DNA of 63,524 bases, filler included, from Malassezia furfur (lineage: Eukaryota), in the NCBI GenBank assembly GCA_052055015.1. It is 29 parts of 29 records of this genome, joined end to end, with 100 filler letters (N's around TTAATTAATTAA, not from the genome) between each part and the next. Parts side by side here need not be neighbours in the genome. Positions count along the whole stretch, not along the records: positions 1 to 2,169 come from JBQJIT010000966.1; positions 2,270 to 4,424 come from JBQJIT010000968.1; positions 4,525 to 6,671 come from JBQJIT010000969.1; positions 6,772 to 8,918 come from JBQJIT010000970.1; positions 9,019 to 11,163 come from JBQJIT010000971.1; positions 11,264 to 13,408 come from JBQJIT010000972.1; positions 13,509 to 15,651 come from JBQJIT010000973.1; positions 15,752 to 17,887 come from JBQJIT010000974.1; 21 more parts are not named here. One strand, given 5' to 3'. Below the pieces are notes generated by a model. It saw only the letters and a program-made list of their open reading frames with translations, had not been told where the DNA came from and made no database searches. The first letter of the stretch is position 1; the number at the start of each line of letters is the position of its first letter. Shown here piece after piece: positions 198 through 61,393 of the stretch. A program made the position numbers and the translations under genes.

Positions 198-1689
198 ATG
201 CCCGATACGCCGGGGCCCAGCAGCCCACGGCCCAACGATCTCGCGTACACGTCCAAGCATGTGTCCATGTCTGGCATCTCGTCCATCGAGGACATGCTCA
301 TCGTCGAGCAGCCGCTCCTGCGCGTGCCGATCGACGAAATGCGCAAGCAGTTCAAGACGCAGCAGCGGCTGTGGGAGCGTGACTATGTGTACTGCACGGG
401 CGTCTTGCAGGCACACGCACACGGCACCAACGTAGATACCGTGCCGAGCGACACGGAGCGCGTGCAGGATGTGCTGCAGCGCCTCCGCACCCTCCGCGAG
501 AAGCTCGCGGAACTCCAGCGCCGCGCGCTGACCCTCCTCCATGATACCCAGGCGCGCGCCGAGTACCTCGGCACGGTCTACACCGTGGGCCTTGCGTCGC
601 ACGCGTTCGAGGACTGGTGCCTCGTGCGGCTCAACCGTATGGTAGTCGACTACATGCTGCGCCGCGGCGCGTTTACCAGCGCCGAGACGCTGGCAGCGCA
701 GCAGCGCCTGGAGCCGCTCATCGACCTGCCCGTCTTTGCGCAGATCCGCAAGGTCGAGATGTCGCTTGTGCCGGACGAGGACTCGGCCCTTGCGCCGTCG
801 TGCACGACGGCCCTGGCGTGGTGCTCGGAAAACAAGGTGACGCTGCGCAAGGCGAAATCGACGCTCGAACTCGACCTGCGCGTGCAAGAGTACGTCGAGA
901 TGGTGCGCGACCGCTCGCCGGCGTCGCTGCGGAGCGCAGCACTGTATGCGCGCAAGTACCTCGTGCCGTGGCTCGGCGCGACGGGGCCGGCAGCGGCAGC
1001 GGCAGCGGCAGCGGCATTGGCGCCAGGCGGCGACGACGCGCGCGAAGGTCCGCCACCGGCCGCGCGCGAGCTCGTGTCGCGTGCGATGGGCCTGCTGGCT
1101 GCGCCGCCGGGGTCGTGGCAGTACCGCGACCTGTACGACCCGCAGCGGTGGCGGCTTCTGCGCGACTCGTTCCGGGCGATTGCGCTGCAGGTGTACGATC
1201 TGCCCCCCACGCCGTTCCTGCACCTTGCCCTGAGTGCGGGGCTGTCGGCGCTGAAGACGCATGCCTGCTACTCGACGCAGGCCAAGGAGGTAGCTATGGT
1301 GCCTACGAGCGGCCTGCCCTCGGCGGGCTCGTCCCTGTTTCTGGCCGCCAGTCTGGAGCCGGACTGCCCGTCGCAGACGGACGACCGGCACCCCGACTGC
1401 CCCGTGTGCTACACGCGCGGACTGGGCACGCTCGCGCGCGAGGTGCCGTTCAGCCACCAGGGCCAATCGCGGCTCGTGTGCCGCATTACCGGGCGCCAGA
1501 TGGACGACACGAACCCCCCCCTGTGCCTGCCGAACGGTCGCGTGTACTCCGAGGAGGTACGTGGTGCTCGCACTCACGCAGGCATTGCAGCAGCTTGCAG
1601 CTGACAGCGTCGATCGGTCGACCGTGACATGTCCGCGCACGGGTGCGCGTTTTCCGTTGGCGGCGTGTCGCAAGCTGTTCGTTTCGTAG
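198..1689 (+). CDS. FYV10: GID/CTLH complex subunit Gid9/Fyv10 (MAEA); intron 1557-1581 (25 nt)
   Basis: LisH (RLNRMVVDYMLRRG), CTLH (ALAWCSENKVTLRKAKSTLELDLRVQEYVEMVR), AGLSALKT, CPVC and PPLCLPNGRVYSEE. Removing GTACGT...CTCACGCAG gives the expected VTCPRTGARF...RKLFVS* end. The ATG at 198 lies in a CGCCACCATG context. Confidence 0.9.
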
Positions 1690-2169
1690 TCGCTTCGCGC
1701 AGCAAATCGACGCACAGTGCAGGATGCGTGACCATTGCGGGGTGGACTAGGGTTAGATGCACGCTCGCGTGCACTGGGCCGCACGCAAGTGCGCGCGCAG
1801 CACGCGCCACTCACATGGGCGCCAAGGCCCAGTCCACGTGGCATGACGTCGGTCGCGCGCCAGGGTCCCGATGTCGGGCGGTGTGATTGGCGGGGCGGGG
1901 GGCCCACCAGGACAACCCGCGCGGCCCTCGCCTGCGCACCTGGCCATTGCGTTAAGCTTCGTCCAACCCGCCACGCCGTTCGCCAGGCCCCACTCGATTG
2001 CCGCGCCGCGCTGCACCCCCGGGCGATTTCATTTTCGAGCGGGCAATCGTCGGAGTGGCGCGCTTTAGTTGCCTCTGCCTTCCGTGAACTTTTGCGAGAG
2101 CCGTTTTCGCACCGCATTGACCACGGCTGGGGCATGTCACCACCCACCTCGCCACGGCACGCGCCGCCC

Positions 2170-2269
2170 NNNNNNNNNNNNNNNNNNNNNNNNNNNNNNN
2201 NNNNNNNNNNNNNTTAATTAATTAANNNNNNNNNNNNNNNNNNNNNNNNNNNNNNNNNNNNNNNNNNNN
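2170..2269. other. Artificial contig-joining spacer (N44-TTAATTAATTAA-N44); first of 28
   Basis: Identical 100-nt blocks start at 2170, 4425, 6672, 8919, 11164, 13409, 15652, 17888, 20121, 22346, 24556, 26763, 28965, 31162, 33355, 35547, 37721, 39894, 42064, 44227, 46388, 48541, 50686, 52830, 54974, 57117, 59259 and 61394. The intervening segments shrink steadily (~2155 to ~2035 nt) and genes are cut at the spacers. Confidence 0.99.
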
Positions 2270-2327
2270 GCCCCCGCTCCCGCTGCTCCGCGCGCACCCT
2301 CGGCGACCAAGGGCATGCGTCTTGGTG

Positions 2328-3209
2328 CTACGCCGCCGGGGCGGGCGCCGGTGCCCGGGCCTGTGTATGTGCAGCACTGAGCGTGCGTGCCTGCGGTGCC
2401 TGTGCGCCCTCGGGCGGGATGCGCTTGTCGGTCTTTTGCAGTCCGCCCATCAGCGCGGCGCCCTTGGGCTTTTTCCCGAGCTGCATGCCCTTGCCCTTGA
2501 ACGGCGCGGCGGCGGGCGCCGGCTGGGCCTCGGGCATCGAGTGCACCGGCGCGGCGGCGGCGGGTGTGTCGTAGGTTTTGCCGACGCCGTGGAAGTTGTC
2601 TGCGCTGCCGAACCCCCCCTGGCGGCGCGACGCGTCGCGGCGCTGCATTTCGAGCTGCCGCGCGCGGCGCTTGAGCTCCTCCTTGGCCTCGAGCTCCTTG
2701 TTGCGCTCGATGATCTCGTGGATGCGCTCTTCGTGGCTGTCCATCTCGAGCATGGTGCGCACCTGCGAGAGCGTGACATTTTCGCGGTACCCCAGCGCGA
2801 CGATCTCGTCAAACGCCTCGAGAATCTCGAAGCAGGACAGGAGGATATCGTGCTCGTCGAGCGAATGGCACTGGTCGCTCACGGCGCGTGCGAGGAGGTG
2901 CAGTGTGTCGATGTCCTGGAGAATGTTGGAGTTCTTGGTAGTGATCAGAATCATGTACAGGTCCTCCAGCGGCTGGTACACGAACCGCACGCTGTCCGTC
3001 TCGACAAACGTGTGCTGGGAGCCGGAGTGGATGAGCTTGGGGAACGAGGCGAGCAGCGCCTCGATCCGCGAGCCGGACATTTCCCGGAACTGGCGGGAGA
3101 TGACCGCTGCGATGAGCCATTAGCACGTACGTTTTCCGCCTCGCGTCGCGATTGAAGCAGCGAGAAGCACCTGCGGTTAGTCGCCCCCGCGGGCCGCACC
3201 ACGCACCAT
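2328..3209 (-). CDS. RET2: Coatomer delta subunit (longin domain plus helical region); introns 3171-3206 (36 nt) and 3107-3130 (24 nt)
   Basis: The spliced N-terminus reads [39 protein letters not shown], followed by QHTFVET..VRFVYQPL, SNILQDIDTL, EMDSHEE and KGKGMQLGKK. Confidence 0.9.
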
Positions 3210-3338: not shown

Positions 3339-3952
3339 CTACTCCAAGGCTACCTGGCGCACGCCGTTCTCGTCGACGACGCGCACGGTAAAGCTACCTA
3401 CATCCACCACGAGGCGCGTCCGCAGCTCGTTGATGCACCGCTTGAGCAGCGCGAGCGCCTCGTCGAGCGACATGTCTGGCCGGTGGTAGCGGTCCATCGT
3501 CGAGAGCGTCAGGTACGCCGCGTACCCCTGCGCCGCAAACGGCACCGGGACGAGCGTGCCGAGGTAGTCGACCCAGTACAGCTCCGGCGTCTTGGTCGGC
3601 GCGTCGTAGCCGCCGAGCAGCATGTTCACCTGGTACGGGTGCCGCGACCGGAGCGACGTCGCGATCTGTGTGCGGATCCATGCGGCCGCCGCGCGCGGGC
3701 GCAGGTCGATATTGTTGCGGATCGAGTAGAGGCGCATGTTGCGCTCGACAAAGTCGGCAAACTGGATGGTGTCGCCTGGGGTCAGTGGGGGCCGTACGTA
3801 CCCGACTCGCCGGCGTACGCCATGACGAGGCTCTTGTTCAGCTCCTTCTGCTTGTCATCGTCCGCCTTCATCTTGACGATCGATCGCGCCGCATTGTTGT
3901 CCGACGCGATGACCGTGAAGCCCTTGCCCGTGATGCCCAGGAGCGCCTCCAT
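3339..3952 (-). CDS. PRE1: 20S proteasome subunit beta-4; intron 3776-3801 (26 nt)
   Basis: MEALLGITGKGF...AGESG|DTIQFADFVERNMRLY...RSRHPYQVNMLLGGYD...LYWVDYLGT. Confidence 0.95.
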
Positions 3953-6771: not shown

Positions 6772-7482
6772 CGACGCCGGCGCCCACCACGGTGCAGAGC
6801 ACGGCGGCCGGCGCGGCGCCGACGGACCCCTCGCAGACGACCGAGCCCGTGGGGGTCGCCGAGACGGCCGCGCCGCAAAAGAGCGGCCCGTCGCTCGGGT
6901 TTGGCGCGTTTGCCGCGCGTTCTGCGCCATTCAAGTCGGCGACGGCGCTGAGCGACAAGGCCAAGGCGGGCAAGGACGACGCGACGAACTGGACCAAGGC
7001 GGAGTCGTCCGAGTCGGCGCCGACGCCGCCCGACGCGGAGGACATTGTGGTGCGCAAGCGTGCGATCCAGAAGCCCGACGCAGAGCTGACGACCGGCGAG
7101 GAGGAGGAGGAGACGGTCGCGGCGACGCGCGCGAAGCTGTACACGATGGCCAAGGACCACTCGTGGAAGGAGCGCGGGACGGGTGTATTGAAGCTGAACC
7201 GCAAAGCCGGCGGCGATGCGACGAGTGCGCGGCTGGGTACGTGGTGCGACGACTCACACAGTGATGCGGTCCGACGCGGTCCTGCGCGTGATCCTCAACG
7301 TGAAGCTGTTTGCCGGGATGCAGTGCCACGTGGAGCAGGAGCGGTTTTTGCGCATCGTCGCGATGGAGCAGGACGGGCTGGTGCACTTTGCGCTGAAGCT
7401 GGCCAACGCGCACGAGGCCGAGAGCTTCTTGGCGGAGCTGCAGCAAAACATACCCGCGCAGCCGGGCGCGGCGGCGAAGTAG
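6772..7482 (+). CDS. YRB2: Ran-binding domain protein (Yrb2/RanBP3-like, 3' part); intron 7237-7261 (25 nt)
   Basis: TGEEEEET...RAKLY...WKERGTGVLKLN...ARL|VMRSDAVLRVILN; an FG-like GFGAF lies upstream. Confidence 0.75.
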
Positions 7483-9018: not shown

Positions 9019-10149
9019 TGGGCGCGTCCGGCGGCGCGTCGGGCGCGTCGGGCGCATCCGGCGCGCCGGCCGCCGACTCGCTCACGGGCACGTCGAGCTT
9101 CTCGACCTTGTACCCAAAGAACAGCTGGCCGAACGGCAGATGCAGCGCCGCCGGCACGCGCTTTTCGTCGAGGAGCGTGTCGTTGTGCACGATCGTCGGG
9201 CGGCTGCGTCAGCATATCACACGTACTCGGTGCGGCGCACACGGCTCGCGGGGTCGTGCGGCGTGATCGGCTTGTCCTTCTTGCCCTTGGTCTTTTTGCC
9301 GCTGAGCGTCTCGCCGAGGCCGCGGAACGGCGTGGCGCCCGACGTGCCTGCGGGGCGCACCGCGTCGTACTTGTCCGTGTCGATGCGGAGGCGCGACGCC
9401 ATCGACGGCCCCGGGTCGCGCGGCTTGGGCGCCGGCTCGACGTAGCCCTTGGGCGGCGCAAAGTCCACCTCCAAGTCCGTCTCGATGATCGAGATGCCCT
9501 CGGCGTCCGGCGTGACCTCCATAATCAGGATCTCGAACGTGAGGCAGTTGTAGCTGATCTCGATAATGTCGCCTGGCGTGAGCGTGGGGTAGTTGCGCAG
9601 CGCCTGCTCGAGCACCGCCTTGGGGTCGCTGATCTCGAGGAAGTCGACCGTCTGCGGCTGGAGCTTGACAAACTTGCCCTTGGGCAGGCGCGTGCCCTGG
9701 ACGTGGATGGGGTCGCCGTCGCGCAGTTCGAGCATGCGCATCATCCACGCGGGCAGGTACACGACGCCCTCCTCGGCGATGAATTCGACGACGCCGCCGT
9801 GCGTCGTTTTGTGCTCGCCGCGGCCGGTGCTGCGCAGCGTGAACGTCCACGGGGACTCGAGCTCCAAGTCGGCTGGGGTCAGCGCGTCGACGTACTGATC
9901 GTCGCGAGCGCGGACGGCGGCATGATGATCTTGCCGCCGTACGAGACGTCGTTGCGCTCGCGCTGCCGGAACTGCGACATGCTGTATGCCTTGAAGTATT
10001 CCTCGTAGGACTGCGGCGGCGCGGGCAGGCGGTGCTCGAAGCCGCCCATCAGACCGTCGAACCCGCCCCAGCGCCCCGCGCCGAGGTGGGTCGGGAGTTG
10101 TCCGAACTGCGCGGTGAGCCTTGGGGTGCGCCCAACGTACCATGTCCAT
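9019..10149 (-). CDS. UFD1: Ubiquitin fusion degradation protein Ufd1; introns 10107-10140 (34 nt), 9873-9895 (23 nt), 9204-9226 (23 nt); 3' end truncated
   Basis: YGGKIIMPPSAL, THGGVVEFIAEEG..YLP.WMM, LPKGKFVKLQPQ, ISDPKAVLE, SIIETDLEVDFAPP.GY and PAALHLPFGQLFFG. The introns are required to join the frames. Confidence 0.95.
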
Positions 10150-10236
10150 CGTTGCCACCGGTGGAGTGTGTGGAGGCTGACTCAGCCGTGTGGGGAAGCG
10201 GGCGCCGGCGCCGGTGCGGCGGCCTGCTCCCGGACC

Positions 10237-10958
10237 ATGTCGATGCCGTCGCTGATCAAGCAGCTCGCCAAGTTTTCGTCGTGCGAGGTCGCCGATGCGC
10301 TGATCAAGCTGAAGCTGCCGCACGGCGGGTACCTGCCGGGCATCGAGATGTACTCGCCGCAGCACATTGCTGGCGAGGCGTCCGTGTGTGGCCCTGCGTT
10401 CACGGTGCAGGTAAGTGTGCGCGATCGCTGACGATCGCGCAGATGGTGCTGCAGAGCGACACGGCTGCGCCGAAGCCCGACAAGCACTTTGTCGATGCGG
10501 CGGAGCCCGGGAGTGTGATGCTGATTTCGACGCCGTCGTCGACGCGCTCGGCGGTGTGGGGCGGACTGATGACGGCGCGTGCGCAGCACCTGGGCGTGCA
10601 GGGGGTGGTGCTGGACGGGCGGTGCCGCGATCTCGGCGAGCACCGTGCGAGCAACTTCCCGGTGTTTGCGCGCGGGCACTCGGTGCTGGGCCAGTCGCCG
10701 TTCACGCGGCCGTCGCAGCTGCAGGTGCCGCTGGAGATTGCGGACCCCACGGCGGGCGGCGCGTTCCCGGCGGTGACGGTGCACCCCGGCGACGTGCTGC
10801 TTGCGGACGTCGACGGCGTGGTGAGTGTGCCGCGCGACCTCGTGGAGCAGGTCGTGGAGCTTGCGCAGAAGGGCCGCGACGTCGATGGGCGGTGCATGGA
10901 GGATCTGCGCGCGGGTGCGGGCATTAAAGAGACGTTTGCACGGCACCGGGGCAAGTAG
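10237..10958 (+). CDS. RraA/HMG-aldolase family protein (YER010C-like); intron 10411-10442 (32 nt)
   Basis: FSSCEVADAL, AVWGGLMTARA..LG..GVVLDGRCRD and VHPGDVLLADVDGVVSVP. Confidence 0.85.
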
Positions 10959-14382: not shown

Positions 14383-15651
14383 ATGGCTGCCAACGAGACG
14401 CCGCCGATGTGCGTCGGCGAGTATGTCGTGGACTATGAAATCGGCAAAGGGTCGTTTGCGCAGGTGTACCGCGCGCACCACCGCGTACGTCGCTCGGCGC
14501 ACCGCCGCCGCTCACACCAGGGTCCTTTTCGCGAGCTCGTCGCCGTCAAGTCGGTGACGCGCGCCAAGCTATCGCCCAAACTGCTGGAGAACCTGGAGGG
14601 CGAGATCTCCATCCTCAAGTCGATGCGCCACACCAACATCGTCGACCTGCGCGACTGCATCTACACGGACGACTACATCCACATGGTCATGGAGTACTGC
14701 CCGGGCGGCGACCTGTCGCAGTACATCCGCAAGCGCGGCGACATTGCGCCATGGAACGGCGACGCACTCAGTAACCCGCTCGCGGCCGCACAGCGCGCCA
14801 AGTTCCCGCACCCCGAGGACGGCGGCCTGAACGACGCCATGGTGCGCTCTTTCCTGGCCCAGCTCGCGAGTGCGCTGCGCTTCCTGCGCAGCCGCGACAT
14901 TGTGCACCGCGACATTAAGCCGCAAAACTTGCTGCTGCGCGTGCCCGACGACGAGTGCCTCGAGAGCGGCCACCCGCGCGAAATCCCGCAGATCAAGGTG
15001 GCCGACTTTGGCTTTGCGCGCTCGCTGCCCGCCGCGTCGCTCGCCAAGACCCTGTGTGGCTCGCCGCTGTACATGGCGCCCGAGATTTTGCGCTACGAAA
15101 AGTACGACGCCAAGGCCGACCTGTGGTCGGTCGGCGCAGTGCTGTACGAAATGTCGGTCGGCAAGCCGCCGTTCCGCGCGACGAACCACGTCGAGCTGCT
15201 GCGCCGCATCGAGCACAGCAACGACCGCATCAAGTTCCCCGACGAGCGCTCCTCGGACTCGCTCGCGCGCGACGCCACACGCCGCCGCATGAACGGCGAA
15301 GCGCCGCGCGCCCCGCCGCACCCCGTCGCGGCCGACATCAAGGCACTCATCCGCAAGCTGCTCAAGCGGCATCCGGTGGAGCGCGTGAGCTTCGACGAGT
15401 TCTTCCACGACGACATCATCACCTCGGTCCCGTACGTCGGCCGCGCGATCATCAAGGACGACCTCGCGGCGTCGATGCTCAGCGACCACACGCACCGCAG
15501 CACGTCGCCGGACCCGCCGAGCGTCCCAACGTCGCCGCCCGCGGCGCTGCGCACGCACCACGCCTCGACGACGCACGACGACGACACCGAGATGGACGAG
15601 GACGCGCCGCTGCCGCACGCGACGCGGCCGGCGCCCGCGCCCCCGACGCAC
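14383..15651 (+). CDS. ATG1: Autophagy Ser/Thr kinase Atg1 (5' part); in-frame intron 14485-14520 (36 nt)
   Basis: [42 protein letters not shown] and [29 protein letters not shown]. Confidence 0.95.
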
Positions 15652-15751: not shown

Positions 15752-17147
15752 CCGCGAGGCCCTCCTCCAGCACCCACTGGTGCTCGCCGTCCTGCACGAG
15801 GTGCAGCGCGCCGGACGACGTGACGAGCGCCGCGCGCACCACCAGCTGGTACGGCGACTGGCGGCTCACCTCGAACGGCGCGGCGCGCACGTTGCCGTGC
15901 AGGTCGTGGTCGTACTGGAACGACATGCCCGTCACCTGCCCGCGCTCCTGCCCGGTCCACGCGTCCGCCCAGAACACGTGCTGGTTGAGCAGCTGCTGCG
16001 AGCGCGTAAAGTACACGCGCAGGATGTACGCGTGCCCGCTGCGGTCCAGCACGCCCTCGTACACGGCGTCCGGCGCGGTCTCCTCAAACTCCCACGCAGA
16101 GTGCAGCCGGCCGTCCTCGTCGACGCGCAGCACCTCGCCGGCGCCGTCGCTGCGCACGCCCACAAAGTAGCCGCGGTCGCCGAGGCCCACGTCGTGCACC
16201 GCCGCAAACGTGTGCCCGCCGCGCGCACGCACGCGCTGCGCCGTCTTGCGCGGCACCGGCGCGTCGACGCGCACCGCATGCACCGCGCCGTCCGTGCCGA
16301 CCCATGCCACGTGGGGGCCGCCGCTCGGCCGCGCGTGCAGCCCGGGGGGGAAGTGCGTGCGCGGCGCCCAGGGCAGCAGCAGCAGGCCCTGCTTGCCGTG
16401 CGCGAGCTCGCCGTCGAGGTCGTGCGTCGCCTCCAGCGCGCCGAGCGCCGACAGCACATAGACGCGCGGGCGCCAGCGCTTGCCGGGCACGGCGGCGACG
16501 ACGTAGACGTGCGACGGCGTGACGATCGTCGACGCGACGTGCACCGCGTCGTCGTCCGGCGCAAAGTGCCACGCGACGTGCCCCGCGCGCAGGCGGCGCA
16601 CGTCGCGCGCATTGGTCACTACGACGAGGTCCTGGGCGTCGCCGGCCGCATGCACGCCCGGCGTGTCGAGCGCGCGCGACGCGTTGTGCACGCGCGTCTC
16701 CCAGAGCAGTTCGCCCGTCTTGCCGAGCACCGCGCGGACGACCTCGCCGCCGTCGCCGCTGAACGTGACGATCGCTGGGTGAGCATCACTACACGTACCG
16801 TCGCCCATCGAGTACAGGCCGTAGATGCCCGCCTTGTCGTAGCGGCGCCACACGAGCCCGCCGTCGCGCGGGTTCACCGCGCCGTACGTCTGGCTGTCGG
16901 TCGCGACGACGATCGCCGTCGAGGTCTTGGTGTTCACGTCCTGGTCGGCGCGCAGGAAGCGCTGGAAGCGCGGTGCCACGTAGCGCTGTGCGCCCGCGTT
17001 CGTCTGCGGCACACCGAGGTGCACCGCATAGTGCCCCACGATCTGCGGCGCCGGCTTCTTCGGGGAAAGCAGGTGCAGGAATCCGTGCACGCCCAGCGCG
17101 TGCACCGCCAGCACACACACCGCGAGCCACGCCGCCCACGGTCGCAT
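15752..17147 (-). CDS. EMC1: ER membrane complex subunit 1 (5' part); in-frame intron 16775-16798 (24 nt)
   Basis: Signal peptide MRPWAAWLAVCVLAVHALG, PQQ-like propeller repeats (AVNPRDGGLVWRR; KTGELLWE) and LVQDGEHQWVLEEGLA. Confidence 0.75.
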
Positions 17148-23850: not shown

Positions 23851-24482
23851 ATGGCGACGGCGCACAGCGTCCTTGTGCACGCGCAGGGCGTCTCGTACAC
23901 GGCGAGCGTGCTCGTCGAGGGCACCGGCGTGCACATAGGCGTCGTGCGCAACATTGGCGAGCACGCGCGGCGTGCGCCGTGGTGGATCGCCTACGTACCG
24001 TCCCCCCACCGCGCGCCGAGCGCGGCCGGCGCCGGCGACGCCGCTGCCGCGTGGGCGGAGCGCGTCGTGGAGCACTGGGCGGGCGTGTCGCTCACCCTGT
24101 CGGATCCCGACACGCCTGAAGAGGACGCCGAGAGCGATGCGCCCGAGGAGGTGTGCACAGTGCGTGTGCCGCTACCGACGCCGCTCGTCGTGCAGGTGTC
24201 GCCGGCGAGCGAGCGCGCGAGCAGCGTGTACGCTGCGCGCCTCGTGCACGCCCTGACCGAGCACACGCAGCGCCAGGTCGCAGCGCTCGAGGCGGCGGTG
24301 CGTGCGTCGCATGCGGCGCTCGACACCGAGCGCGCCAAGTACCGCGAGCTGCTCGCGGCGCATCCCCCCAGCACCGCGCGGTACGCCGCGGCGTCGATCG
24401 TGCACCCCGGGCGTATCCGGTACGTGGCGCATACTGACGCAGCCGCCAGACGGACCTGGGCGGATTCGAAGGCGATCCGTGA
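23851..24482 (+). CDS. 202-aa protein, candidate PAXX/XRCC4-superfamily NHEJ factor; intron 24420-24442 (23 nt)
   Basis: Beta-rich head, predicted coiled coil, and a spliced tail ASIVHPGRIRRQTDLGGFEGDP* resembling the PAXX C-terminal SLINPG..K....G..F motif. Confidence 0.55.
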
Positions 24483-36781: not shown

Positions 36782-37619
36782 TCAAGCAAAAAACAGCTCG
36801 CGGAGCTGCTTCATGGTGTCCTCCGGGCTCGTGACCGTGTGGCCGATCACACTCGGGTGCGAAAAGATCTCGTGGTCGTTGCCGCCCTTGAACGTCTTGT
36901 CCCCAAAGAAGTGGATCTCCTTGTAGCCGCCCGGCAGTGCCTCGTCGGTCTCCTTGAGGTGCTGCAGCGCAAACGTCTTGTCCCATCCCTCGGGGAACAC
37001 GTCGAAGCTGATCTGGCCGCCGATGCTGTAGGTCAGGCCATAGTCGGGGAACTCCTTCTTGAGCGCCTCGACAAAGTCGCGGCGAATGTGATGCTCGTTG
37101 TCGTAGTTTTGGAAATCGATGCGCTCCTGAATGCTGCGGGGTAAGCGCGGCGACGTACCTCGCGTTGCGCCCAATCGGGCTCACGTTCACCATACCGCGG
37201 CGGAACTCGACAAACGTGCCGCGCATGATCGGCAGGTCGAGCTTCGAGATGTACGCCAGGACAAACTTGACCAGCTTCTTGTACTTCTCCTCGCCGAGCC
37301 AGTTGATGAACGACTCGCTGGGCAGCTCCTTGCCCATACGGTACGCCGTCAGGCCGTTCTCGGCGAACCCGTAATCAAAGTCCTCGAGGACTGTGTGAGC
37401 GCTGCACGTACAGTTCTCCGCACCGGGCAGCTGCAGCTGCTCGCGGATCTTGTCGAGATCGCTGCCGCCCACAAAGCCGGTCGCGGTGTAGTCGCGCAGC
37501 TTCTTGAGTACGTCCAGCATCTCGGACGACACCGTCTGCCGTGCGGGAGTCAGCGTCCCATCCACATCAAATAGGCAAATGACGCCCGGATTTTTGCGCT
37601 GCGCGAGAGGAAGCACCAT
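36782..37619 (-). CDS. SEC53: Phosphomannomutase (HAD family); introns 37391-37411 (21 nt) and 37134-37158 (25 nt)
   Basis: [58 protein letters not shown] and FFGDKT..GGNDHEI. Confidence 0.97.
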
Positions 37620-37820: not shown

Positions 37821-38334
37821 CCGTCGTCGCGATCGCGGGCGCCGGTCCCGCCGCCGGCTCCGTGTCCGCCTCCGCCGCCGCCACCACGGGGCCGTCCGCG
37901 GCAAAGTGCGCCGTCGACCGGTGGCCATTGGGATACGCGGGCTCGGGAGCCTGCACGGACGACGCGGCCGCATGCACTTCGACGTACGACGGCGGCGCTT
38001 CGGCAGGCAGCCCCGAGAACAGCTCGGGCTTGTATGATTCCTCCGGTGGCGGCCCCGGCGGCGGCTGATTCGCGTACGCGGCCGATGTCGGCTGCATCGG
38101 CACCGCGGTCATGTACGGCTGGTCGGCCGCATAGCCGTACCCCGGCGTCATCGCCGGCCACACAGCCGCGGAATGCGTCGGCCGTCCAAAGGCGCCCTGC
38201 TGTGCCTGCTGTGCCTGCGATCGCTTGCGCCGCGCCAGAACGATGCTCAAGATGAACGCGATCAACGCCGCCACCGCTGTGCCGTGTCAGTTCTTTGCCT
38301 TCCACGCCCACGTACCAGCTATCAACAGAAACAT
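37821..38334 (-). CDS. Single-pass membrane protein with a Pro/Tyr/Gln-rich tail and PPSY motif; intron 38277-38315 (39 nt); start uncertain
   Basis: Hydrophobic MFLLIA|AVAALIAFILSIVLA, then RRKR stop-transfer and APPSY. Confidence 0.6.
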
Positions 38335-38707: not shown

Positions 38708-39185
38708 CTAGCTCTTGCTGGGGTTGTAGCTCGGCGGCGGCTCGACGGGTGGGGCGTACGGGCCCGTGCCTGTGCCGGTGGTCGCCGTGGTCTGGTTCCC
38801 CGTGCTCGGCGGCGGCCCCGACGGCGGCTGGTAGCCGCCCGACGGCGGCGGGCCGGGCGGTGGCTGGTAGCCACCCTGGGACGGGTAGCCGCCCTGGTTG
38901 TACGGCTGCCCAAAGTTGTTGAACGCCGGCTGCATGGGCTGCTGCTGCGGTGGACCCATGTAACCCGTGCTGTACCCCGGGCGGATGTATGGCGTGAATC
39001 CGCGGCGGCGGCGGGCGATGAATGCGCCGATGGCAAAGACGACGATGATCACAAAGATCGAGACGCCGATGCCTGGAGGTTAGGGGCCGTGCGGCCAAGA
39101 AGCACGTACCGATGCCTGCGCGTGCGCCGGTGCTGAGGCCGCTGCAGTTGCCGTAGTAGTCGCAGTTGCGGCGGTAGTAGCTCAT
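38708..39185 (-). CDS. Small single-pass membrane protein (Rcr1-like) with a PPPSY tail; intron 39073-39109 (37 nt)
   Basis: MSYYRRNCDYYGNC.GLSTGARAGI|GIGVSIFVIIVVFAIGAFIARRRR...PPPSYNPSKS*. Confidence 0.7.
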
Positions 39186-48715: not shown

Positions 48716-49463
48716 CTACGCGTCCTCGCGCTGTGCGATCATCAGCAGCACGGTCGCCATGATCATTAGGCCAATCACGCACGACAAAATCGTGACGAGG
48801 GGGTGCGAGTGTCCCTCGCACTCGTCGAGGTACGTGTGCTCTGCCTCGAGCTGCCGCACACACGCAAAGTAGTCCTGCGTCGACACGATGTAGGAGAGAA
48901 AGGCTGCGATCAGGTAAATCACGCCGAGCGCCATCTCCTCGCGTCCCATCTTGTCATCGTGGGCGTCCCACAGCCGCACGGCCGGCGTGCTCGGCGCATA
49001 CGGCGCCTGGTGCACAATCGGAGACGGCGGCACGGACGATTCGGTGGGAAGAAGCGCACGCATCGTCTGCACGAGCGTCTCCTGCTGCTCGTCCTCATCT
49101 TGGAGCTGTAGATCGAGAAACATGGTGCACGACAAGATCGTCATATAGGTATAAAATTTCGACCACGCCATGTACGTTCGCTCGCGCACTGCATCAGTCA
49201 GACCACCTACTGCAAAAGTCCCGCGCGGCCTCGGACGGCACCTCGGGCGACTTAAGCCCGAACCAGTGCGCACGGTTGAATCGCGAGCGCGGTGGGGGGG
49301 GGGATTCCTCGGCCTCATCGAGTTCGTCATCCTGGAGCTCTGCTTGGCAAATCGATGCGCGCCGCTTGTCTGCACGTGTAATTCTGTCTTCTAATGATAG
49401 CCAGGGACGACCCATGACCTCCGCCGGTGCATCGTCCCGCTCCGGATCGGCGCGCGACGCCAT
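48716..49463 (-). CDS. DUF202/YidH-like membrane protein; intron 49189-49210 (22 nt)
   Basis: Spliced ARDFCMRERTYMAW followed by three hydrophobic segments. Confidence 0.7.
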
Positions 49464-49657: not shown

Positions 49658-49750
49658 CACTTTTTTTCCGTCGGCCCATAAGCATTGGCACCTGTAAGGC
49701 CGATTCCTGCCTGGTTATAACGCGCGATGTGGAGGGACTTGCCATTCGAG

Positions 49751-49843
49751 CCAGCCATAGCTCAGTTGGAAGAGCGAAGGTTTGTAATTAGGTTACCGGT
49801 CCTTGTCCACCTTAGGTCCCGTGTTCGAATCACGGTGGCTGGA
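49751..49843 (+). tRNA. tRNA-Tyr(GTA) with a 20-nt intron (49788-49807)
   Basis: Exons identical to the upstream copy, different intron; T5 terminator at 49849-49853. Confidence 0.95.
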
Positions 49844-49946: not shown

Positions 49947-50685
49947 CTAGGAAGCGCTATAGGTCCCCTCTCGGAATAGGTCACTAGGGTAGTAATGCGC
50001 GCGTAAGATTTGGCCATGGAGTGGAAGCCTGCATGAGCACACGCCCTAACGTACTGATCCAATGCACGAATGCCTCGATACGCCCCGGCCATCCCTGTAA
50101 ACTCGACAAGGACACGTATGAGATCTGGCATCGGGTGGAGAAGCGCACGCTGGACGTAGCCATACTCGGCACATAGATCCGCTGCGTGAGCGCACAAAAC
50201 CCACCAATCTCTTGCTGCAAGTTCTGCGCCACGTCCGAGTCGCTGTCCAAAGCAAGATCGAATGCAACCACCTCGCTCGGCTCGCCATACATCTCACGGG
50301 CAATCGCTGCCTCGTCTCGGTCGCGATTCACAATCACGCCACGCGCCGTACCACGCTTGGCCACGCGCGCCTCTAAAGGGCGCACCATCCCCTTGTTTCC
50401 CTCAGCCCCAATCCCTTCCCCCTTCTTGTACCCGTACCGCTCCATGAGGCGTTCCGCAAACCGTGCAGGGTCTGGCCGATGCGCGGGGTCGACAGACGGC
50501 GAAGGATGAGGCTCTGGCTTGGACGCGGGGGCAAACTTGGCCGCAATCGCCGCAACCTCTCTACGCTTTTCCTCGATCGTGGTGTTGGAACGAGGCGGCC
50601 GGGGTGCCAGCTCGGTCGGCACTGCACTTATGTCCTGGATGGGTCGCATTGGTGGTGGGCCTGGCGGAGGGCGTGGGGGTGGACC
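49947..50685 (-). CDS. SPF45: Splicing factor SPF45/RBM17-like (G-patch + UHM; 5' truncated); introns 50182-50204 (23 nt) and 50029-50054 (26 nt)
   Basis: G-patch FAERLMERYGYKKGEGIG....GMVRPL; UHM LQQEI|ADLCAEYGYV...IRVLVEF...AYRGIRALD|QLPLHGQILRAHYYPSDLF. Confidence 0.75.
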
Positions 50686-51305
50686 NNNNNNNNNNNNNNN
50701 NNNNNNNNNNNNNNNNNNNNNNNNNNNNNTTAATTAATTAANNNNNNNNNNNNNNNNNNNNNNNNNNNNNNNNNNNNNNNNNNNNCCCACGTCACAGCCC
50801 TGCGCGCGCAGGCCCGCTGGCCCACCATGCCGCCGCCGCCGCCGCCGCCCAACCCGGCGTTCCAGCAGCGCCTGCGCGTACGTGGAGGCACGCCCTGCGC
50901 GGCCCACTGACACCCCAGGTGCTCACGTTCTCGGTGCCTCTCCTCGTCGTGTCGTCGTGTACGTGCAACCTCGGCTCATCCACCAGACATGCTCTACAAA
51001 CGTCTCTATCTCGGCGAGGAACAAAAACCGCTGCCTTCCTCGGTCGCGCGCAACCTCGCCAACCCACCGTCGAACACCGAGCCCCGTCTGTAGATCACGT
51101 GATACCAGCCACTTTTTGGGTGCGAACCTAGGCACAGCGCCGCGCCTTTCTTCGCGTCGGTGGTGGCCTGGGCACTCGCACGGGCGACGCCGCATACCCA
51201 CGCACCACCACGTTGCACACGCTTGCGCGCTGGGCGAATCGCGCGTGCACGCTCCGCGTACAAGCCGCGCTGCCCTCGCGCTCCTTCCAGACGCGCGCAC
51301 CGAGC

Positions 51306-54046: not shown

Positions 54047-54973
54047 ATGCCGAAACGCACGCCGGGCGCGGGCGCCCGCGCGCCCGCGACGTTTGAGGCG
54101 TGCATGGACGCCGGGATTGATCAGGAGGAGCGCGGCGAGCGCTTCGCCGTCGACGCCAAGGCACAGCGGTACGTGCGCGCCCTCACGCAGCCACTTTGAG
54201 GCCGCCTACACACACTATGCACACGCCGCCGCGCTCGACCCCACGTCCGTCGACGCACACTACAATGCCGCGCGCGTGCAGCACACGCTCGGCTCGACGT
54301 TCTATGCGCCGCCCGACGCACACGACGCACTCGCACGCGCGCTCGAGCACGCAGCGACGGCGCTGCACCACGCGGCGCCGGACGTCGACGGCGTGCCGGA
54401 CGCCGCGCGCCTCGACGTGCTCGCCAACGCCGCATACACGCTCGAGGCCCTCGCCGAGCTGCTCGACACGTTCCCGTGCGAGGACGCTCGCCTGCGCACG
54501 CGCATCGCCGCCGCGGTGCCGGCGCTCGGCGACGGCGCTGTGAGCCCTGCCGCGCTGTACCGCGCGGCGCTCGACGCACTCGCCGACGTCGAGGCGGGGC
54601 AGCGCGCGGTGCTCGCGCACGCCCTGCACGCCGACGCACCGACGCATGCGGCCGCCGCCGATGCGCCGCAGTACACGTCGTCGATCGTCGCGCCCGCAAG
54701 CGTGCTCGAGACGTGCAACGACGCGCTGACCTGTGTGACGGCGCTCCTCACCCACACCCCCGGCGACGCGCTCGCCGCCACGCTCGAGCACGCACACGCC
54801 GTCGCCGCGCGCGCCGACGCGTGGTGTGCGTCGCTGCCCGCGGGCCTCGGCGCGCGCCAGAGCCCCGAGCACGAGTGGGACGCACAGGCGGACGCACTGC
54901 GCTGGAACGTGCTCGCCGCCGACGTCGCCGCCGTGCAGCGCGCGCACGAGCTCGCGGCGCACGCGGCCGCCGC
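54047..54973 (+). CDS. Fungal TPR-like protein (5' part); intron 54169-54190 (22 nt)
   Basis: Spliced TFEACMDAGIDQEERGERF..DAKAQR|HFEAAY..Y..A..LDP.SVDAHYNAAR. Confidence 0.65.
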
Positions 54974-56147: not shown

Positions 56148-57106
56148 GCGCGCACCCAGCGCCGCGACCTCGGCATCGCTCAGCCCGTCGAGCCTGCGTC
56201 AGTGTGTTTGACGCACCGCTCCAAGAGGTAGTCGACCTCGACCTCCTTGGTGAGCGGCACAATAAACTCCTTGTAGAGCCGCACGACCTCCTGCGACTGG
56301 ATCTTGCGCTGCGTCTCGTCGACAATGTGCGCCTGGTCCAGGTTCTGCCCATAGATCTCGGCTTTTTGCGCAACCCGCTTCAGCAGAATCGCCTCGACCG
56401 CCGGCTTGGTGATCAGGCTCGCCAGCGCCTCGCGATCGCGCGCACGGATCGGTGGCACAAACGCCGCAGGGTCCGCGCGGAATTTGCTCTCGCTCACAAA
56501 CATCCCTGCGTCAGTCGCGCAACCCACCGAAATGCACACGCCGGTTGATCGCACTGAGCGCCTCGACGTCGCAGATCGCACTCGAGCCGTACTGCCGGTC
56601 GTCCTCGAGCTGGGTCAGCGCACGACGTACGCCGTCCTTGCGCGCAGCGATGCGCGGCACAATGTCCTCGGTATAGAACCGCAGCACCGCCTGCGACACG
56701 TTCACATGGTGGGGGTGCAGCAGGTCAGGATAGTCGACCGGCTGCAAGATCGGCGCAGGCAGCGACGCCTGGCTCGTAAAGGGGTACTCGTCGGGGCTGC
56801 GTCAGTCCACGCGCACCTACGCGGTCCACCGCCCGAGCTTGGCTGCATTAGCAACACCCACGACGTACCGTGACTCGATTCCACCTCTTTCAAGTTCCAC
56901 GCAAGCCACGAGCCGGTCCAGTGCTCCTTGTCGCGCAGCTCGGTGAACGCGCCGTCCTCGTACATGCGCCGGTTGCACGCAAACTGCGTCCGCTCAATCA
57001 GGCGGAACACGATCGTATCTTCCATGCGCTGCAGCGTCGCGCGGATCTTATCGAGCGACAAGATGTCCTCCGCGGTCGCATTGTGGAAATTGATCGAGTC
57101 GGTCAT
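56115..57106 (-). CDS. ARO7: Chorismate mutase; introns 56843-56868 (26 nt), 56797-56820 (24 nt), 56506-56527 (22 nt), 56194-56216 (23 nt)
   Basis: LSLDKIRATLQRMEDTIVFRLIER.QF, H|AKLGRWT|APDEYPF, YGSSA.CD...L.A..RRVHF|GMFVSESKF and IVPLTKEVEVDYLLE|RLDGLS. Confidence 0.95.
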
Positions 57107-57216: not shown

Positions 57217-59247
57217 CTCGTCGGCGGCCTTCGCGTCTGCCTCCTCGTCGTCCACCGCATCCGGCGGGCGCACATAGTAAAACTGGCGCAGGTACGCATC
57301 GACGATCGAGTCCGCGTTGGCGTCGCCGATCGCGACGCTCTTGGGCGCCGGCGGCTCTGGCCGCGACGCGAGCAGCGCTACGACCGCGTCGGACGGCTCG
57401 ACACCGAGCTCGCCCGCGTCGGCGAACGCCGCGTGCACCGGTGCGAAAATCGCGTCGCACGCCTTGGCGATCTTGGTGGCGGTCTTGGCGATCGCCGAGT
57501 CGGGGGTATTGTACGCGAGGGCGTTGGCACACACGAGGCGCGCATCGCTCTCCATTGCGGCCGCCGTCGTGTAGGTGAGCGAGGCGATGCGGGACGCGAT
57601 CGTCGACCAGTCCATCGGCTCGGCGATGCGCTCGTAGTAGTCGGGCGCATCGTCGGTCGACACGGGCTGCAGGAACCAGTTGGCCTTGTCGAGCGCCATG
57701 AGCCGCTCGAGCGCATGCCGCATCGCCGTCTGCCGATACAGCATGGCGCCCTGCACGGCGTGTGTCTGGAAGAGGCGCGCCTGGCGCAGCTTGGCCTTCT
57801 CGCGCTTGCGCACAAGCTCGGCGAGGAGGCGCACCTTCTCGAGGTCCTCGCGCAGGCGGTACAGGTACTGCAGCTTGGCGAGCTTCAGCGCCGAGGTGCG
57901 CTCGTCGACAAAGTTGCCGACGGTCCACGGCTCAATGTGCAGCCGCTTGAGCAGCGGCGCGCCGCGCATCTCTTGCCGCTTCAGGCTCCAGTACCGCACG
58001 ATCTGCGCGACGGTCTGCGGCTTGCGGCGCAGCGGGATGCGCGCGACGTACTCGAGCACGCGGTTCACGAGGTAGTTGGGCACGGGCAGGGGCCCGGCGC
58101 TGTACAGCTTGTTGTAGGCGCGCGCGCTCTTCAGTGCGATCGACTCGCCCGCGGTGTGGGCGCTCGGCTTGGGCAGCGCGAGCTCGCGTGTCGAGACGTC
58201 CGAGTCGCTCGCGTCGTCGGCGGCGTCGGCGCCGCGCACCTTGGCGCGCAGCTCGGCCTTTTCGTCGGGGGGCAGGTGGTGGTGGCAGTAGGCGACGAGT
58301 GGCGCGTCGTCGCCCTCGTCGCCCTCGTCGCCGCGGCTGCGCCGCGCCTTGGAGAGCAGGCCGACGCGCCGCGCACACATCACATGGAACGCCGTGAAGC
58401 ACGAGCGGTGCTCGCACTGGATGCAGGCGCCGCTGCGCTTGTTGCACAGGTAGCACCGCAGGCGCCAGCGCGCCTTGGGGATCGCGCTGATCCCGTCGAT
58501 CGGCTCCATGTACACCGCGTTGCCGACGCCCGTCTCGGGGATCCACATGGCACACAGCAGGTGCGCCCAGGTGCCCTGCGTGGTCTGCTTGAACGCGCCG
58601 CCCTCGTTGGGGCACAGCACGCACGACACGGGGCGGTCGGGCGAGACGGTGCACTTGCGGCACAGCCACTGGCCCTCGGGGATGTAGGGGATCCCGTAGC
58701 AGTCCTGGTGCACGGCCAGGTTGCACCCGTCGCAGAACACAATCGCGTTCAGATTCTCGCACTCGTTGTCGTCGCAGATCGCACACAGCGAGTCGTCCGG
58801 GAACTCGTCTTCGTCGTCGCGCGCGCCGATCGAGAAGCGCGACGGGATGCGCTTCACGAGTGCGAACCACTCCTTCTCGAGGCGGTCGACGATGATCTCA
58901 AACGCCTCGCACGTCACCATGTCGAGCTGGTTCTGCTTGCGCTCCGCATTCACCTGCGCGAGCCACGCTTGGTCTGGGTCAGCATGCGGCCACGTACCCT
59001 GCTCGTCCATGTCGTACTCGACCTGCCGGTCGAACTCGGCCTCGGTCGGCTCTATGTAGCGCACAAGGTGCGGCGGAAGACGCTGCTCGCTCCCGTCGTG
59101 GTAGCCGTACTGCACCATGTGCGGGTCGTGCACACTCGGCGCCGCGCTGAGCACCACGAGCTCCTCGGGGCCCACCAGCTCGTACGACGGCCGGAGCCGG
59201 GCGGCGCCGCTCGTCGCGGACGCCACGGTCGGCGTCCCATGCGCCAT
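57217..59247 (-). CDS. NTO1: NuA3/MOZ scaffold Nto1/BRPF-like (EPL1, PZP, bromodomain; 3' truncated); in-frame intron 58974-58997 (24 nt)
   Basis: VEYDMDEQ|DQAWL, DRLEKEWF, CAICDD..CEN.NAIVFCDGCNLAVHQDCYG.PYIPEGQWLCRKC, YWSLKR....GAPLLKRL and a bromodomain F.QPV....PDYY..I..PMD...NA..YN. Confidence 0.92.
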
Positions 59248-59358: not shown

Positions 59359-59812
59359 GCGCGGGGCCGCCGGAGCGCAGGATGTTGCCGCGGCGCTCCT
59401 CCTCGGCGAGGTACTCGTCGATGCTCATCGTCGGCAGGCGGTGCGACGGGCGGAACACGCGCGCCTGCGCGTCGCGCCGCGCGTCCACGTCCGTGGCGCG
59501 GCCCGTGATCACAAACGGGCGCAGCGGCTTGCCGCCCTCGCTGAGCAGCGGGCCGCCCTGCGCGCCGGCGAACCACGGCGTGTCGAGGCGCCAGGTGGTG
59601 TCGCGCTCGTCCGCGTCGGGCGCGCGCGCGTCCTGCCCGGGCGGCGGCGCATGCTGCAGCATCTCGAGCTCCTGCCGCGCGGCGTCCATCGTGCCGGCCG
59701 TGCGCACCGCGTGCAGGACGAGCAGCATCCGCAGGTAGTCGCGGAGCGTGCGCGGCGGCCGCGCCTCGAACGTGTCGGCGCCGCGGCGCGCGTCGCCCGC
59801 GCCGGTGCCGGT

Positions 59813-59860
<48 letters not shown>

Positions 59861-60445
59861 CGCCCCCTCGTCGCCGCTCGGCACGACAAGCAGGTCGAAG
59901 AACGCGTCGTCGAGCGCCGGCGGACGCGGCGCGTGCGCCTGCTTCTGGTAGGCGCGCGCCCGAAACTCGCTACGGAACGCGTCCAGGAGACGCACGACCT
60001 CCTTCTCGATCTTGAGCAGCTGGATCTTGAGGTGCCGCCGCTCGGCGGGCGCGAGCTGCGCGTGCCCCAGCACCTGCTGCCGCAGCATCAGTGCGACCGC
60101 CGGCGGCAGTGCGCCGTGCTTCGTCGCTGTGGTGAAAAAGAGGCGCGCGGCGCCGACGCACGCCTCGACATGCTGCTTGCGTGCGTGCATGCGGTCGCCC
60201 TCGGGTGCGTCGGGCGGCGTGGGCCGCGCGTCCTCGAGGTACGCCTGCAGGCTCGGCACGAAGAAGACGCGCAGCGCATGCGTCGGAATCTCGCGCAGCG
60301 GCTCGTTGGCGCTCACGACGCCGAGCGCGTCGGCGGCGCGCGCGACGTCGGCGAGCAGCGCAAGCGCATGCGGCACGTCGCGGCGCGCGCTCGCGAGGCG
60401 CGCGGCCGTGTCCAGTCGGCCCGTGAGCGATTCGGCGTCGGACAT
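59359..60445 (-). CDS. TAP42: PP2A regulator Tap42/alpha4 (3' truncated), with a poly-Asp (GAC)n tract at ~59813-59860
   Basis: GVVSANEPLREIPT..L, GPLLSEGGKPLRPFVI and VFRPSHRLPTMSIDEYL.EE..RG. Confidence 0.92.
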
Positions 60446-60479
60446 GCGTGCGGGGGGCTGAGTCAGCACGCGCCACGGC

Positions 60480-61393
60480 CTATCCACTATGGGCCCACGA
60501 AAAGTAGGCGGCGAGCGCGCCCCACAGCACGCCCGCGACGACAAACTCGATCGTGGCAAACACGAGCACGAACGTCGCGAGCGAGAGCAGCGCGTGGTGG
60601 TACATAAAGTAGCTGCGTTAGGCCGTCCACGTACATCACCCCCGTCATGTGCGCGTCGAAGCGGAGCACGGCGTGCTGCACCGGCACGCGCGGCATGTCG
60701 ACCACGAGCGCGGCGCGCGTCGCGAGCAGCGCGCGCTGCGGCGCGGGCATCCACGGCGTGATGCCGTGCAGCAGCGGCACACGCACGACCTGCGTCGGCA
60801 CGACCGGCTCGCGCTGGAACGGGCGCAGCGCCGAGCGCGCGAGCCGCGCGCCCCAGCGCACCACGCGCGGCTCGGGCACGAGCAGCATCGCGCGGCTCGC
60901 GGCGTACATCGGCGTGTCGCCCGCGGCGAGCTCGAGGCGCACCATCGCGTCTGTGTCAGCGGGCCACGTACTGTCCTGCGCGCCGTGCGGCATGAGCACG
61001 CGCATCTCGAGCGCGACGTCGTACGTGATGCCCTCGCGGAACAGCGGCGCGCTCGGCTCCGTCTGCCACACGGGCACATCGGCGTCGCTGCCGTCGAGCA
61101 GCACGTGCGCAAACGGCGGCGGCGCATCGGCGCCGTGGCGGAACTGCAGGTGCACGTCCTTGTGCACCGACGCGTCGGGCACCCATGCATGGTAGAAGCC
61201 TATGTACGCAAGCACGGCCATCGCGACACACGCGACGTGCAGGGCCGCGAGCATCGCGACGCGCAGCACGACGCGGTGCGACGTCGGCGAGCCGACGAGC
61301 GCGTACGCGAGGTGCGCAACGCGCGCCGCGGGGCGTACCACGAGCGTGCGCCACGCCGCGTCCACGAGCGCGGCGCCGCGCTGCACCTCGGTG
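60480..61393 (-). CDS. SEI1: Seipin (lipid-droplet biogenesis; 5' truncated); introns 60951-60971 (21 nt) and 60613-60634 (22 nt)
   Basis: TM1 ..LAYIGFY..WVP, VHLQF, YDVALEM, N.MVRLEL, A.LRFDAHMTGV|IYFMYHH, then TM2. Confidence 0.8.

Follow-up and report, generated by a model that had tools for sequence, protein, structure and literature searches.

Very short GT-AG introns with a compact, GC-rich signal layout in a 63.5-kb sample of the Malassezia furfur genome

Our analyses support the view that the genes in a 63,524-nucleotide (nt) stretch of DNA from Malassezia furfur (GenBank assembly GCA_052055015.1), referred to here in its full length as the window, are interrupted by candidate introns of only 21-41 nt, each reduced to little more than a GTACGT-like 5' splice site, a branch motif of the CTGAC or CTCAC kind and a terminal CAG. 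We assign a probability of about 0.93 to the reading that these segments belong to the ordinary U2-type (GT-AG) nuclear introns, spliced constitutively in a GC-rich Malassezia yeast and compressed nearly to their signals. What speaks for this reading is the signals themselves, their statistical excess, the behaviour of the reading frame across them, and the collinearity with homologous proteins that is restored when they are taken out.

The signals occur far more often than expected by chance. A strict pattern (GTACGT-N5-14-CTGAC-N1-8-CAG) matched the window 14 times, against 0.02 matches expected from 100 dinucleotide shuffles, and a tight pattern (GTRNGT, 6-12 nt, CTNAY, 1-2 nt, CAG) gave 29 matches against 0.24 expected in 100 first-order Markov simulations, an excess of approximately 120-fold. 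A broad pattern yielded 51 raw matches against 8.8 expected in Markov simulations. Approximately 9 of the 51 should thus be chance matches, and about as many were discarded on frame or strand grounds; beyond these, hardly anything speaks for a wholly different explanation, namely that the segments are not spliceosomal but represent chance matches, assembly errors, programmed frameshift sites or elements removed in some other way. That explanation has to contend, however, with the size of the tight-motif excess, with the orientation of the motifs, which at each of the 25 homology-supported positions is that of the gene identified by homology, with a restoration of frame specific to the length of each segment (14 of 14, see below), and with the fact that GT, yUnAy and CAG are precisely the signals of the spliceosome; we consider its probability negligible.

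The catalogue that supports the spliceosomal reading comprises 43 GT...CAG candidates, of which 31 measure 21-26 nt and 32 do not exceed 30 nt. Their median length is 25 nt for all 43 and 24 nt for the 33 supported ones, with a mode at 22-26 nt, and the lengths modulo 3 are distributed as 11:17:15, indistinguishable from even at n=43. Homology supports 25 candidates and frame together with coding potential another 8, the remaining 10 being motif-only. A first-pass annotation of this DNA had reconstructed 39 introns, 30 of them 21-26 nt long, as real and pervasive spliceosomal-type introns with a rigid pattern; these counts are closely matched here, all 15 of its examples were found again with identical positions, lengths and motifs (each GT...AG, 13 on the minus and 2 on the plus strand), and its general claim, the rigidity of the pattern included, is borne out. 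It had put the upper limit at 40 nt; the longest homology-supported intron has exactly that length, and two motif-only candidates reach 41 nt.

Reading frames behave as expected of introns. Using a codon log-odds model trained on 15 long open reading frames (ORFs), we found that 14 of 14 candidates with strongly coding flanks and a length that is not a multiple of three shift the frame by exactly their own length (binomial p=2e-7); once lengths that are multiples of three are included, the frame link is correct in 20 of 20 candidates with strongly coding flanks. Further support came from a motif-blind gene model, whose inputs were GT/AG and codon scores only. Of the catalogued introns it reproduced 16 to the nucleotide, every one of them with the 5' and branch motifs that were absent from its inputs. 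Because motif frequencies are otherwise inflated by ascertainment, these 16 constitute an unbiased subset; the model is trusted for exact recoveries only, since its other predictions are poor. Among the introns recovered are those of the proteasome subunit gene and UFD1 (9873..9895), both of the DDHD-domain gene, all three of RRF1, both of TAF9, two of the arrestin-like gene (33943..33973 and 34221..34246), one each of phosphomannomutase (37134..37158) and seipin (60613..60634), and the probable introns 39073..39109 and 54169..54190, all described below.

Homology provided a view of individual genes. All named close homologues belong to Malassezia, M. brasiliensis being the nearest (75-86% identity to exon queries), followed by M. 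psittaci, M. yamatoensis, M. nana, M. vespertilionis and M. caprae. In RRF1, removal of three introns on the minus strand, 29730..29750 (21 nt), 29855..29876 (22 nt) and 29996..30021 (26 nt), yields a model that aligns without gaps to M. brasiliensis P0001; the in-frame TGA noticed earlier in the 21-nt intron is indeed there, a read-through product ending in VPVPKYVAR followed by the stop. In the same way, the arrestin-like gene (33623-35546) aligns gaplessly to M. vespertilionis P0012 and M. caprae P0015 once four plus-strand introns are removed: 33640..33665 (26 nt, after a first exon of 5 codons), 33943..33973 (31 nt), 34090..34121 (32 nt) and 34221..34246 (26 nt). In seipin, the junction left by 60613..60634 (-, 22 nt), with TGVI before it and YFM after it, agrees with M. 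brasiliensis P0003 and M. nana P0005, and the ORF-type prediction P0002 enters frameshifted sequence.

The chorismate mutase gene, whose exons map to yeast residues 6-71, 80-156 and 163-251, harbours four homology-supported introns on the minus strand. Splicing of 56194..56216 (23 nt), upstream of which lies the exon for yeast residues 163-251, gives a gapless alignment through VEVDYL and LERLDGLS to the full-length relatives P0027 and P0024, and splicing of 56506..56527 (22 nt) does so through RRVHF and GMFVSESKFR to P0027. The other two, 56797..56820 (24 nt) downstream and 56843..56868 (26 nt) upstream, enclose a micro-exon of 22 nt (56821-56842, -), which together with two split codons supplies 8 missing residues, aligns HAKLGRWT to HAKCRRWD of P0027 and encodes the conserved H-AK..RW segment. 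As a whole, the spliced protein aligns across 4 of 5 junctions to full-length relatives.

In several other genes a single Pfam domain is interrupted by the intron and resumes beyond it. This is the case for the proteasome subunit gene at 3776..3801 (-, 26 nt; Proteasome 6-53 in the upstream exon and 56-189 downstream, with a correct frame link and an in-frame stop), for UFD1 at 9873..9895 (-, 23 nt; UFD1_N1 1-34 and 38-97), for MDM10 at 25134..25155 (-, 22 nt; MDM10 6-239 and 241-305, position 240 being the split codon) and for phosphomannomutase at 37134..37158 (-, 25 nt, branch CTTAC; PMM 35-110 and 113-220). In the DDHD-domain lipase gene, the DDHD domain passes from 1-53 to 54-227 across 28144..28165 (-, 22 nt) and from 54-227 to 232-257 across 27201..27225 (-, 25 nt). 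In TAF9, the TFIID-31kDa domain runs over 17-36 in exon 1, 38-82 in exon 2, beyond 31011..31035 (-, 25 nt), and 83-121 downstream of 30822..30861 (-, 40 nt). The delta-COP gene (RET2-like) was resolved through solved structures, in that exon 3 begins opposite residue 16 of chains 5mu7_B and 5a1u_H, and removal of intron 1 (3171..3206, -, 36 nt, directly after the ATG) and intron 2 (3107..3130, -, 24 nt, with a TAA in the coding frame) gives a model with 15 residues ahead of that exon, made up of M, 13 amino acids and a split codon, exon 2 measuring 40 nt. The first exon of this gene seemingly consists of the ATG alone (3207-3209), followed at once by the 36-nt intron.

Introns whose length is a multiple of three and which contain no stop codon deserve separate consideration. 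In three such cases the homologues are decisive. When 14485..14520 (+, 36 nt) of the ULK/Atg1-like kinase gene is read through, gaps totalling 12 residues open against the ULK1 chains 6mnh_A and 4wno_A at the 12 intron-encoded residues; read-through of 37391..37411 (-, 21 nt) in phosphomannomutase produces a 7-residue insertion against 6i5x_A exactly there and an 11-residue gap against 5ue7_A; and in the EPL1/PHD/bromodomain gene, where 58974..58997 (-, 24 nt) separates Pfam EPL1 105-131 upstream from 135-166, which starts 3 residues into the downstream exon, positions 132-134 are filled only by the version with the 24-nt intron.

Three further candidates of this type could be read otherwise, as intron-like coding sequence or as introns that are often retained, both protein forms existing: the probable introns 56610..56630 of chorismate mutase (-, 21 nt, tight motif, strongly coding flanks) and 60951..60971 of seipin (-, 21 nt, tight motif), and the motif-only candidate 16775..16798 of EMC1 (-, 24 nt, tight motif, strongly coding flanks). 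Retention of such segments would leave the frame intact. The deposited M. brasiliensis seipin does read through 60951..60971 and keeps the 7 residues, the chorismate mutase segment sits in a loop that varies widely in length among relatives, where the alignments fit either reading, and the alignment of the EMC1 segment to human EMC1 is ambiguous and permits both. Nevertheless, none of them departs from the tight motif, of which chance alone would give 0.24 occurrences over the full length of the window, and all three of the comparable candidates that could be decided (37391, 14485 and 58974) proved to be introns. For seipin, M. brasiliensis has other residues at 5 of the 7 read-through positions between identical flanks, and the encoded GT, branch-like motif and AG fit an intron in both species, the M. 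brasiliensis DNA being deduced here from its protein; removal of the segment places D-N-A-M-V opposite G-N-F-M-V of M. nana. We infer that the M. brasiliensis segment is an intron translated by the annotator. Coding sequence or frequent retention at some of these three sites thus appears improbable to us, and we keep all three as candidate introns.

The anatomy of the 43 candidates is highly uniform. The 5' site is GTACGT in 33, the others being GTAGGT, GTGCGT, GTGGGT, GTAAGT, GTATGT and GTGGGC; the GTRNGT class, imposed on candidates found by motif, covers 42 of 43, and position +4 is C in 35 (33 GTACGT and 2 GTGCGT). A spacer of 6-26 nt (6-11 nt in 33 of 43), approximately 75% G+C, leads to a branch motif that conforms to yUnAy throughout, as CTGAC in 21, CTCAC in 12 and another CTNAY in 10. 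In most introns 16-21 nt separate the 5' end from the branch A. Its distance to the intron end is 5-11 nt; in 26 of 43 it is 5 nt, so that CTNAY and the CAG with which all 43 terminate stand one nucleotide apart. The branch A never comes closer than 15 nt to the 5' splice site or 5 nt to the 3' end, and the shortest length seen is 21 nt (6+6+5+1+3). The first-pass annotation had placed the branch A of the 21-nt introns at about position 16 and regarded branch and 3' signals as fused; position 16 was found in all four introns of that length, and the predominance of the 5-nt distance agrees with signals that are practically fused.

With usually a single nucleotide between the branch motif and CAG, a polypyrimidine tract does not fit, and none was seen between branch and 3' site in the 43 candidates, the few bases there being 72% C. 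The introns as a whole are 65% G+C, with no pyrimidine run longer than 7 nt. Polypyrimidine tracts are typical of metazoan introns and dispensable in yeasts. U12-type introns (5' [AG]TATCCTT, branch TCCTTAAC) were not seen either, none of the 43 5' hexamers being GTATCC or ATATCC. Below 21 nt no independent candidate was found, the five hits consisting of four nested in catalogued introns and one intergenic hit with a frame mismatch; between 42 and 500 nt, a search with consensus and coding flanks returned six hits, each of which joins the ends of short introns.

These signals suggest a conventional route to removal of the segments from messenger RNA, in which U1 and U6 would pair with GUACGU, SF1 and U2 would recognise the branch motif CUGAC/CUCAC, which fits yUnAy, and the first AG just past the branch would serve as the 3' site, a tract reader of the U2AF type contributing little or nothing. 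Such tight spacing nonetheless raises the question of whether the spliceosome of this lineage is specially adapted, through loss or change of the U2AF large subunit/Mud2, a U1 5' end matching the +4 C, or factors for short introns, as opposed to an ordinary fungal spliceosome that tolerates short introns with strong signals. The minimum of 15 nt to the branch A and 5 nt beyond it, the C at +4 in 35 of 43 5' sites, and the report that introns below 40 nt are the worst spliced ones in Cryptococcus (PMC11913375) would favour adaptation. On the other hand, nothing within the window concerns the machinery, an Rfam search having found no small nuclear RNA gene in it, canonical U2 and U2AF have been reported in the tiny-intron myxozoans and Stentor (PMC13644364), and Yarrowia handles a 1-nt gap between branch and 3' motif with an otherwise usual yeast spliceosome (PMC13309789). 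We therefore regard special adaptation as rather unlikely, and ordinary U2-type splicing of strongly marked introns as the preferred account.

Apart from the two mentioned above in chorismate mutase and seipin, the probable introns supported by frame and coding potential are the following. In the RanBP1-like gene, 7237..7261 (+, 25 nt) has a correct frame link and lies between weak Ran_BP1 matches to positions 25-43 on its upstream side and 52-117 on its downstream side. The 3' part of UFD1 contains 9204..9226 (-, 23 nt), with a correct frame link, flank coding scores of 18.0 and 21.2, and an in-frame stop on read-through. The RraA-like gene contains 10411..10442 (+, 32 nt), with a correct frame link and an in-frame stop; Pfam RraA-like 48-151 lies downstream and the upstream exon has no Pfam match. 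A gene of unknown family, without Pfam match, carries 39073..39109 (-, 37 nt; frames linked, flank scores 11.5 and 19.0), a DUF202-domain gene 49189..49210 (-, 22 nt; frames linked, in-frame stop, DUF202 7-67 downstream), and a gene for a TPR protein 54169..54190 (+, 22 nt; frames linked, flank scores 16.3 and 9.8).

The motif-only class includes, besides the EMC1 segment, 1557..1581 (+, 25 nt; tight motif GTACGT..CTCAC.CAG) near the 3' part of a CTLH/CRA-domain gene, with a strongly coding upstream flank, a weak downstream flank and the Pfam CTLH domain on its upstream side, 10107..10140 (-, 34 nt; broad motif, weak flank scores) after a possible 3-codon first exon of UFD1, and 38277..38315 (-, 39 nt; broad motif, non-coding flank scores). 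A G-patch protein gene has 50182..50204 (-, 23 nt) and, in its 3' part, 50029..50054 (-, 26 nt), both with a tight motif and weak flank scores; the gene itself was noted at 50206-50685 (-; Pfam E=1.3e-07), its domain being upstream of 50029..50054. G-patch proteins include activators of spliceosomal helicases. Upstream of a tRNase Z gene lie 50878..50918 (+, 41 nt; broad motif, in-frame stop) and 50959..50986 (+, 28 nt; broad motif, weak flank scores). Between the coding regions of seipin and TAP42, 60458..60498 (-, 41 nt) has the donor GTGGGC, stops inside and frames that do not link. Finally, 24420..24442 (+, 23 nt), to which no gene was assigned, has a perfect tight motif, weakly coding flanks whose frames do not link, and no convincing Pfam match upstream; it is situated between the start of a Grn1-type GTPase gene and the end of MDM10, and may mark an untranslated region that contains an intron, or a small gene that went unrecognised.

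Several broad matches were dropped from the catalogue: 6073-6106/6108, which is antisense to a P4-ATPase ORF; 10166-10185, 42423-42468 and 48731-48782, on account of a frame mismatch; 48433-48474, whose upstream coding score is negative, though its frames link; and several nested alternative matches. Alternative sites proposed by a motif-aware model at 7225, 56539 and 58968 fitted the homologue coordinates less well than those of the first-pass annotation.

A number of points weigh against our interpretation. The evidence base consists of the DNA of the window, homology and the literature, from which splicing itself is inferred, and the codon model was trained on ORFs from the same window. Candidates were found by motif search, so that consensus frequencies are inflated by ascertainment; the GT/AG ends were set by every search and are hence a condition, not a test, and the search is blind to non-consensus introns, longer ones being possible as well. 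For 10 of the 43 candidates the motif is the sole ground. The simple frame test was failed by 4 of 43 (3107, 24420, 33640 and 60458), in the case of 3107 and 33640 because the neighbouring exons are very short, both of these being supported by homology. In accepted genes the motif-blind model predicted 38 introns, 22 of which lie outside the catalogue; 4 of these share one splice site with it and the rest are without consensus signals. The one prediction that was checked, 31357-31407 in importin-alpha, proved spurious, an unbroken ORF running through it from the ATG at 31308. The ambiguous alignments at 56610..56630 and 16775..16798, and the segment kept in the deposited M. brasiliensis seipin, belong on the same side of the balance.

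The window itself spans 63.5 kb at approximately 66% G+C. Exon-wise Pfam scans named about 35 ordinary eukaryotic genes in it, including those for a proteasome subunit, Vps35, UFD1, telomerase reverse transcriptase, MDM10, RRF1, TAF9, importin-alpha and phosphomannomutase, as well as urease, the C-terminus of a TOR-type kinase, chorismate mutase, seipin and TAP42. Twenty-eight masked blocks at regular spacing break ORFs in all frames; because of them, several gene models (Vps35, P4-ATPase, telomerase reverse transcriptase, urease, the TOR-type kinase and others) are partial, and introns in or beside the blocks would go undetected. Orthologous introns were not comparable, as a metagenome scan with importin-alpha returned 63 loci, none of them with the neighbouring genes. 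An Rfam search of the window found two transfer RNA (tRNA) genes only. These are tandem genes of 93-96 nt at 49563-49658 and 49751-49843 (+), scoring 57 bits each; since ARAGORN places 'gtaa' where the anticodon sits in both, they are probably intron-containing tRNA-Tyr(GTA) genes.

The expectation of the first-pass annotation that gene predictors would mis-annotate genes of this kind is visible in deposited proteins of related Malassezia. Beyond the seipin of M. brasiliensis, the arrestin-like proteins of M. psittaci and M. yamatoensis (P0009 and P0010) contain unrelated residues between intron positions 2 and 4. The ORF-type predictions P0007 and P0008 for the same gene begin at the last exon only. 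A chorismate mutase relative, P0023, has a long unrelated insertion exactly where 56506-56527 sits, which looks like an intron retained at a conserved position in the prediction of another organism. Annotators of Malassezia genomes have met such introns by lowering the minimum intron length to 10-20 (PMC5389616; PMC6473144), for M. restricta to 20 and then 15 (PMC6473144), and in M. sympodialis RNA sequencing added 2585 supported introns and reduced the mean size from 65 to 30 base pairs (bp) (PMC5389616). The mean intron of 76-79 bp obtained for M. globosa by an evidence-poor pipeline (PMC4634964) probably reflects the same annotation problem.

In terms of novelty, it is already on record that Malassezia introns are normally very short, and the novelty implied by the first-pass annotation, which had itself named such documentation as lowering it, was consequently overstated. 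A review attributes 'very short introns' to the genus (PMC7426719), the 5350 introns of the curated M. sympodialis annotation, 99% of them supported by RNA sequencing, average 30 bp (PMC5389616), and those of M. restricta average 37.2, their median being 30.0 (PMC9241646). The window resembles both species, belonging to the same genus by its nearest homologues and to compact genomes with very short introns; it differs in a somewhat lower median of 24-25 nt and mode of 22-26 nt, in a small, motif-ascertained sample of 63 kb. The available portions of the descriptions of M. sympodialis and M. restricta give no splice-signal architecture, floor length or branch position, and a mainly open-access search turned up no study dealing specifically with the splice signals, branch position or minimum intron length of Malassezia, an absence that counts as weak evidence. 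The core fact is thus already in the Malassezia genome literature, and our finding confirms and refines it and is no discovery. The window contributes a clear picture of how the signals are laid out, the floor of 21 nt and, for a close relative of M. brasiliensis, a median of about 24-25 nt.

Chlorarachniophyte nucleomorphs are among the lineages with tiny introns. Others are Paramecium (approximately 25 bp), Stentor (15-16), microsporidia, dicyemids and myxozoans, with medians of 22-27 bp in the last (PMC13644364; PMC5014332). The introns of the window share with them a mode below 30 nt, GT-AG ends, a missing or vestigial polypyrimidine tract and a branch A near the 3' AG (PMC13644364). In contrast, those lineages are AT-rich with a weakly conserved branch signal, a run of A (PMC13644364), whereas the introns described here are 65% G+C with a sharp CTGAC/CTCAC, and their host, neither a ciliate nor an obligate parasite, is a dikaryan yeast that grows freely. 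As far as the available portions go, Malassezia is not named in a 2026 list of lineages with introns below 30 bp (PMC13644364), nor is it mentioned in PMC11913375. That second paper concerns Cryptococcus neoformans, which is likewise a basidiomycete yeast with many short introns, averaging 56 nt; there 'ultra-short' means below 60 nt and introns below 40 nt are reported to be the least efficiently spliced (PMC11913375), whereas nearly all candidates of the window are below 40 nt. A parallel in layout, and in layout only, is offered by Yarrowia lipolytica. In 72.5% of its introns the branch and 3' motifs stand one nucleotide apart, and CAG and TAG predominate as 3' sites (PMC13309789), as compared with one nucleotide between CTNAY and CAG in 26 of 43 here. 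Its introns, however, are binned up to 1826 nt and carry GTGAGT and ACTAAC (PMC13309789), unlike the 21-41 nt, GTACGT and CTGAC/CTCAC found here.

A stronger proposition can be put forward tentatively, as a possibility that we do not favour: that among dikaryan fungi the lineage near M. brasiliensis has the shortest introns by modal length, that a fixed, GC-rich layout (15 nt to the branch A, 5 nt to the 3' end, no polypyrimidine tract) imposes a hard floor of 21 nt, and that its stop-free introns of a length divisible by three are systematically read through in the annotations of its relatives. If this were true, Malassezia, which can be transformed and edited, would offer a tractable model of a spliceosome working on tiny introns. 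In practical terms, our results highlight the importance of annotation, as deposited proteins of sister species are faulty in genes of this very window. Their scientific meaning concerns the lower limit of spliceosomal splicing, the whole intron set of Malassezia lying at 21-40 nt with unusually crisp signals.

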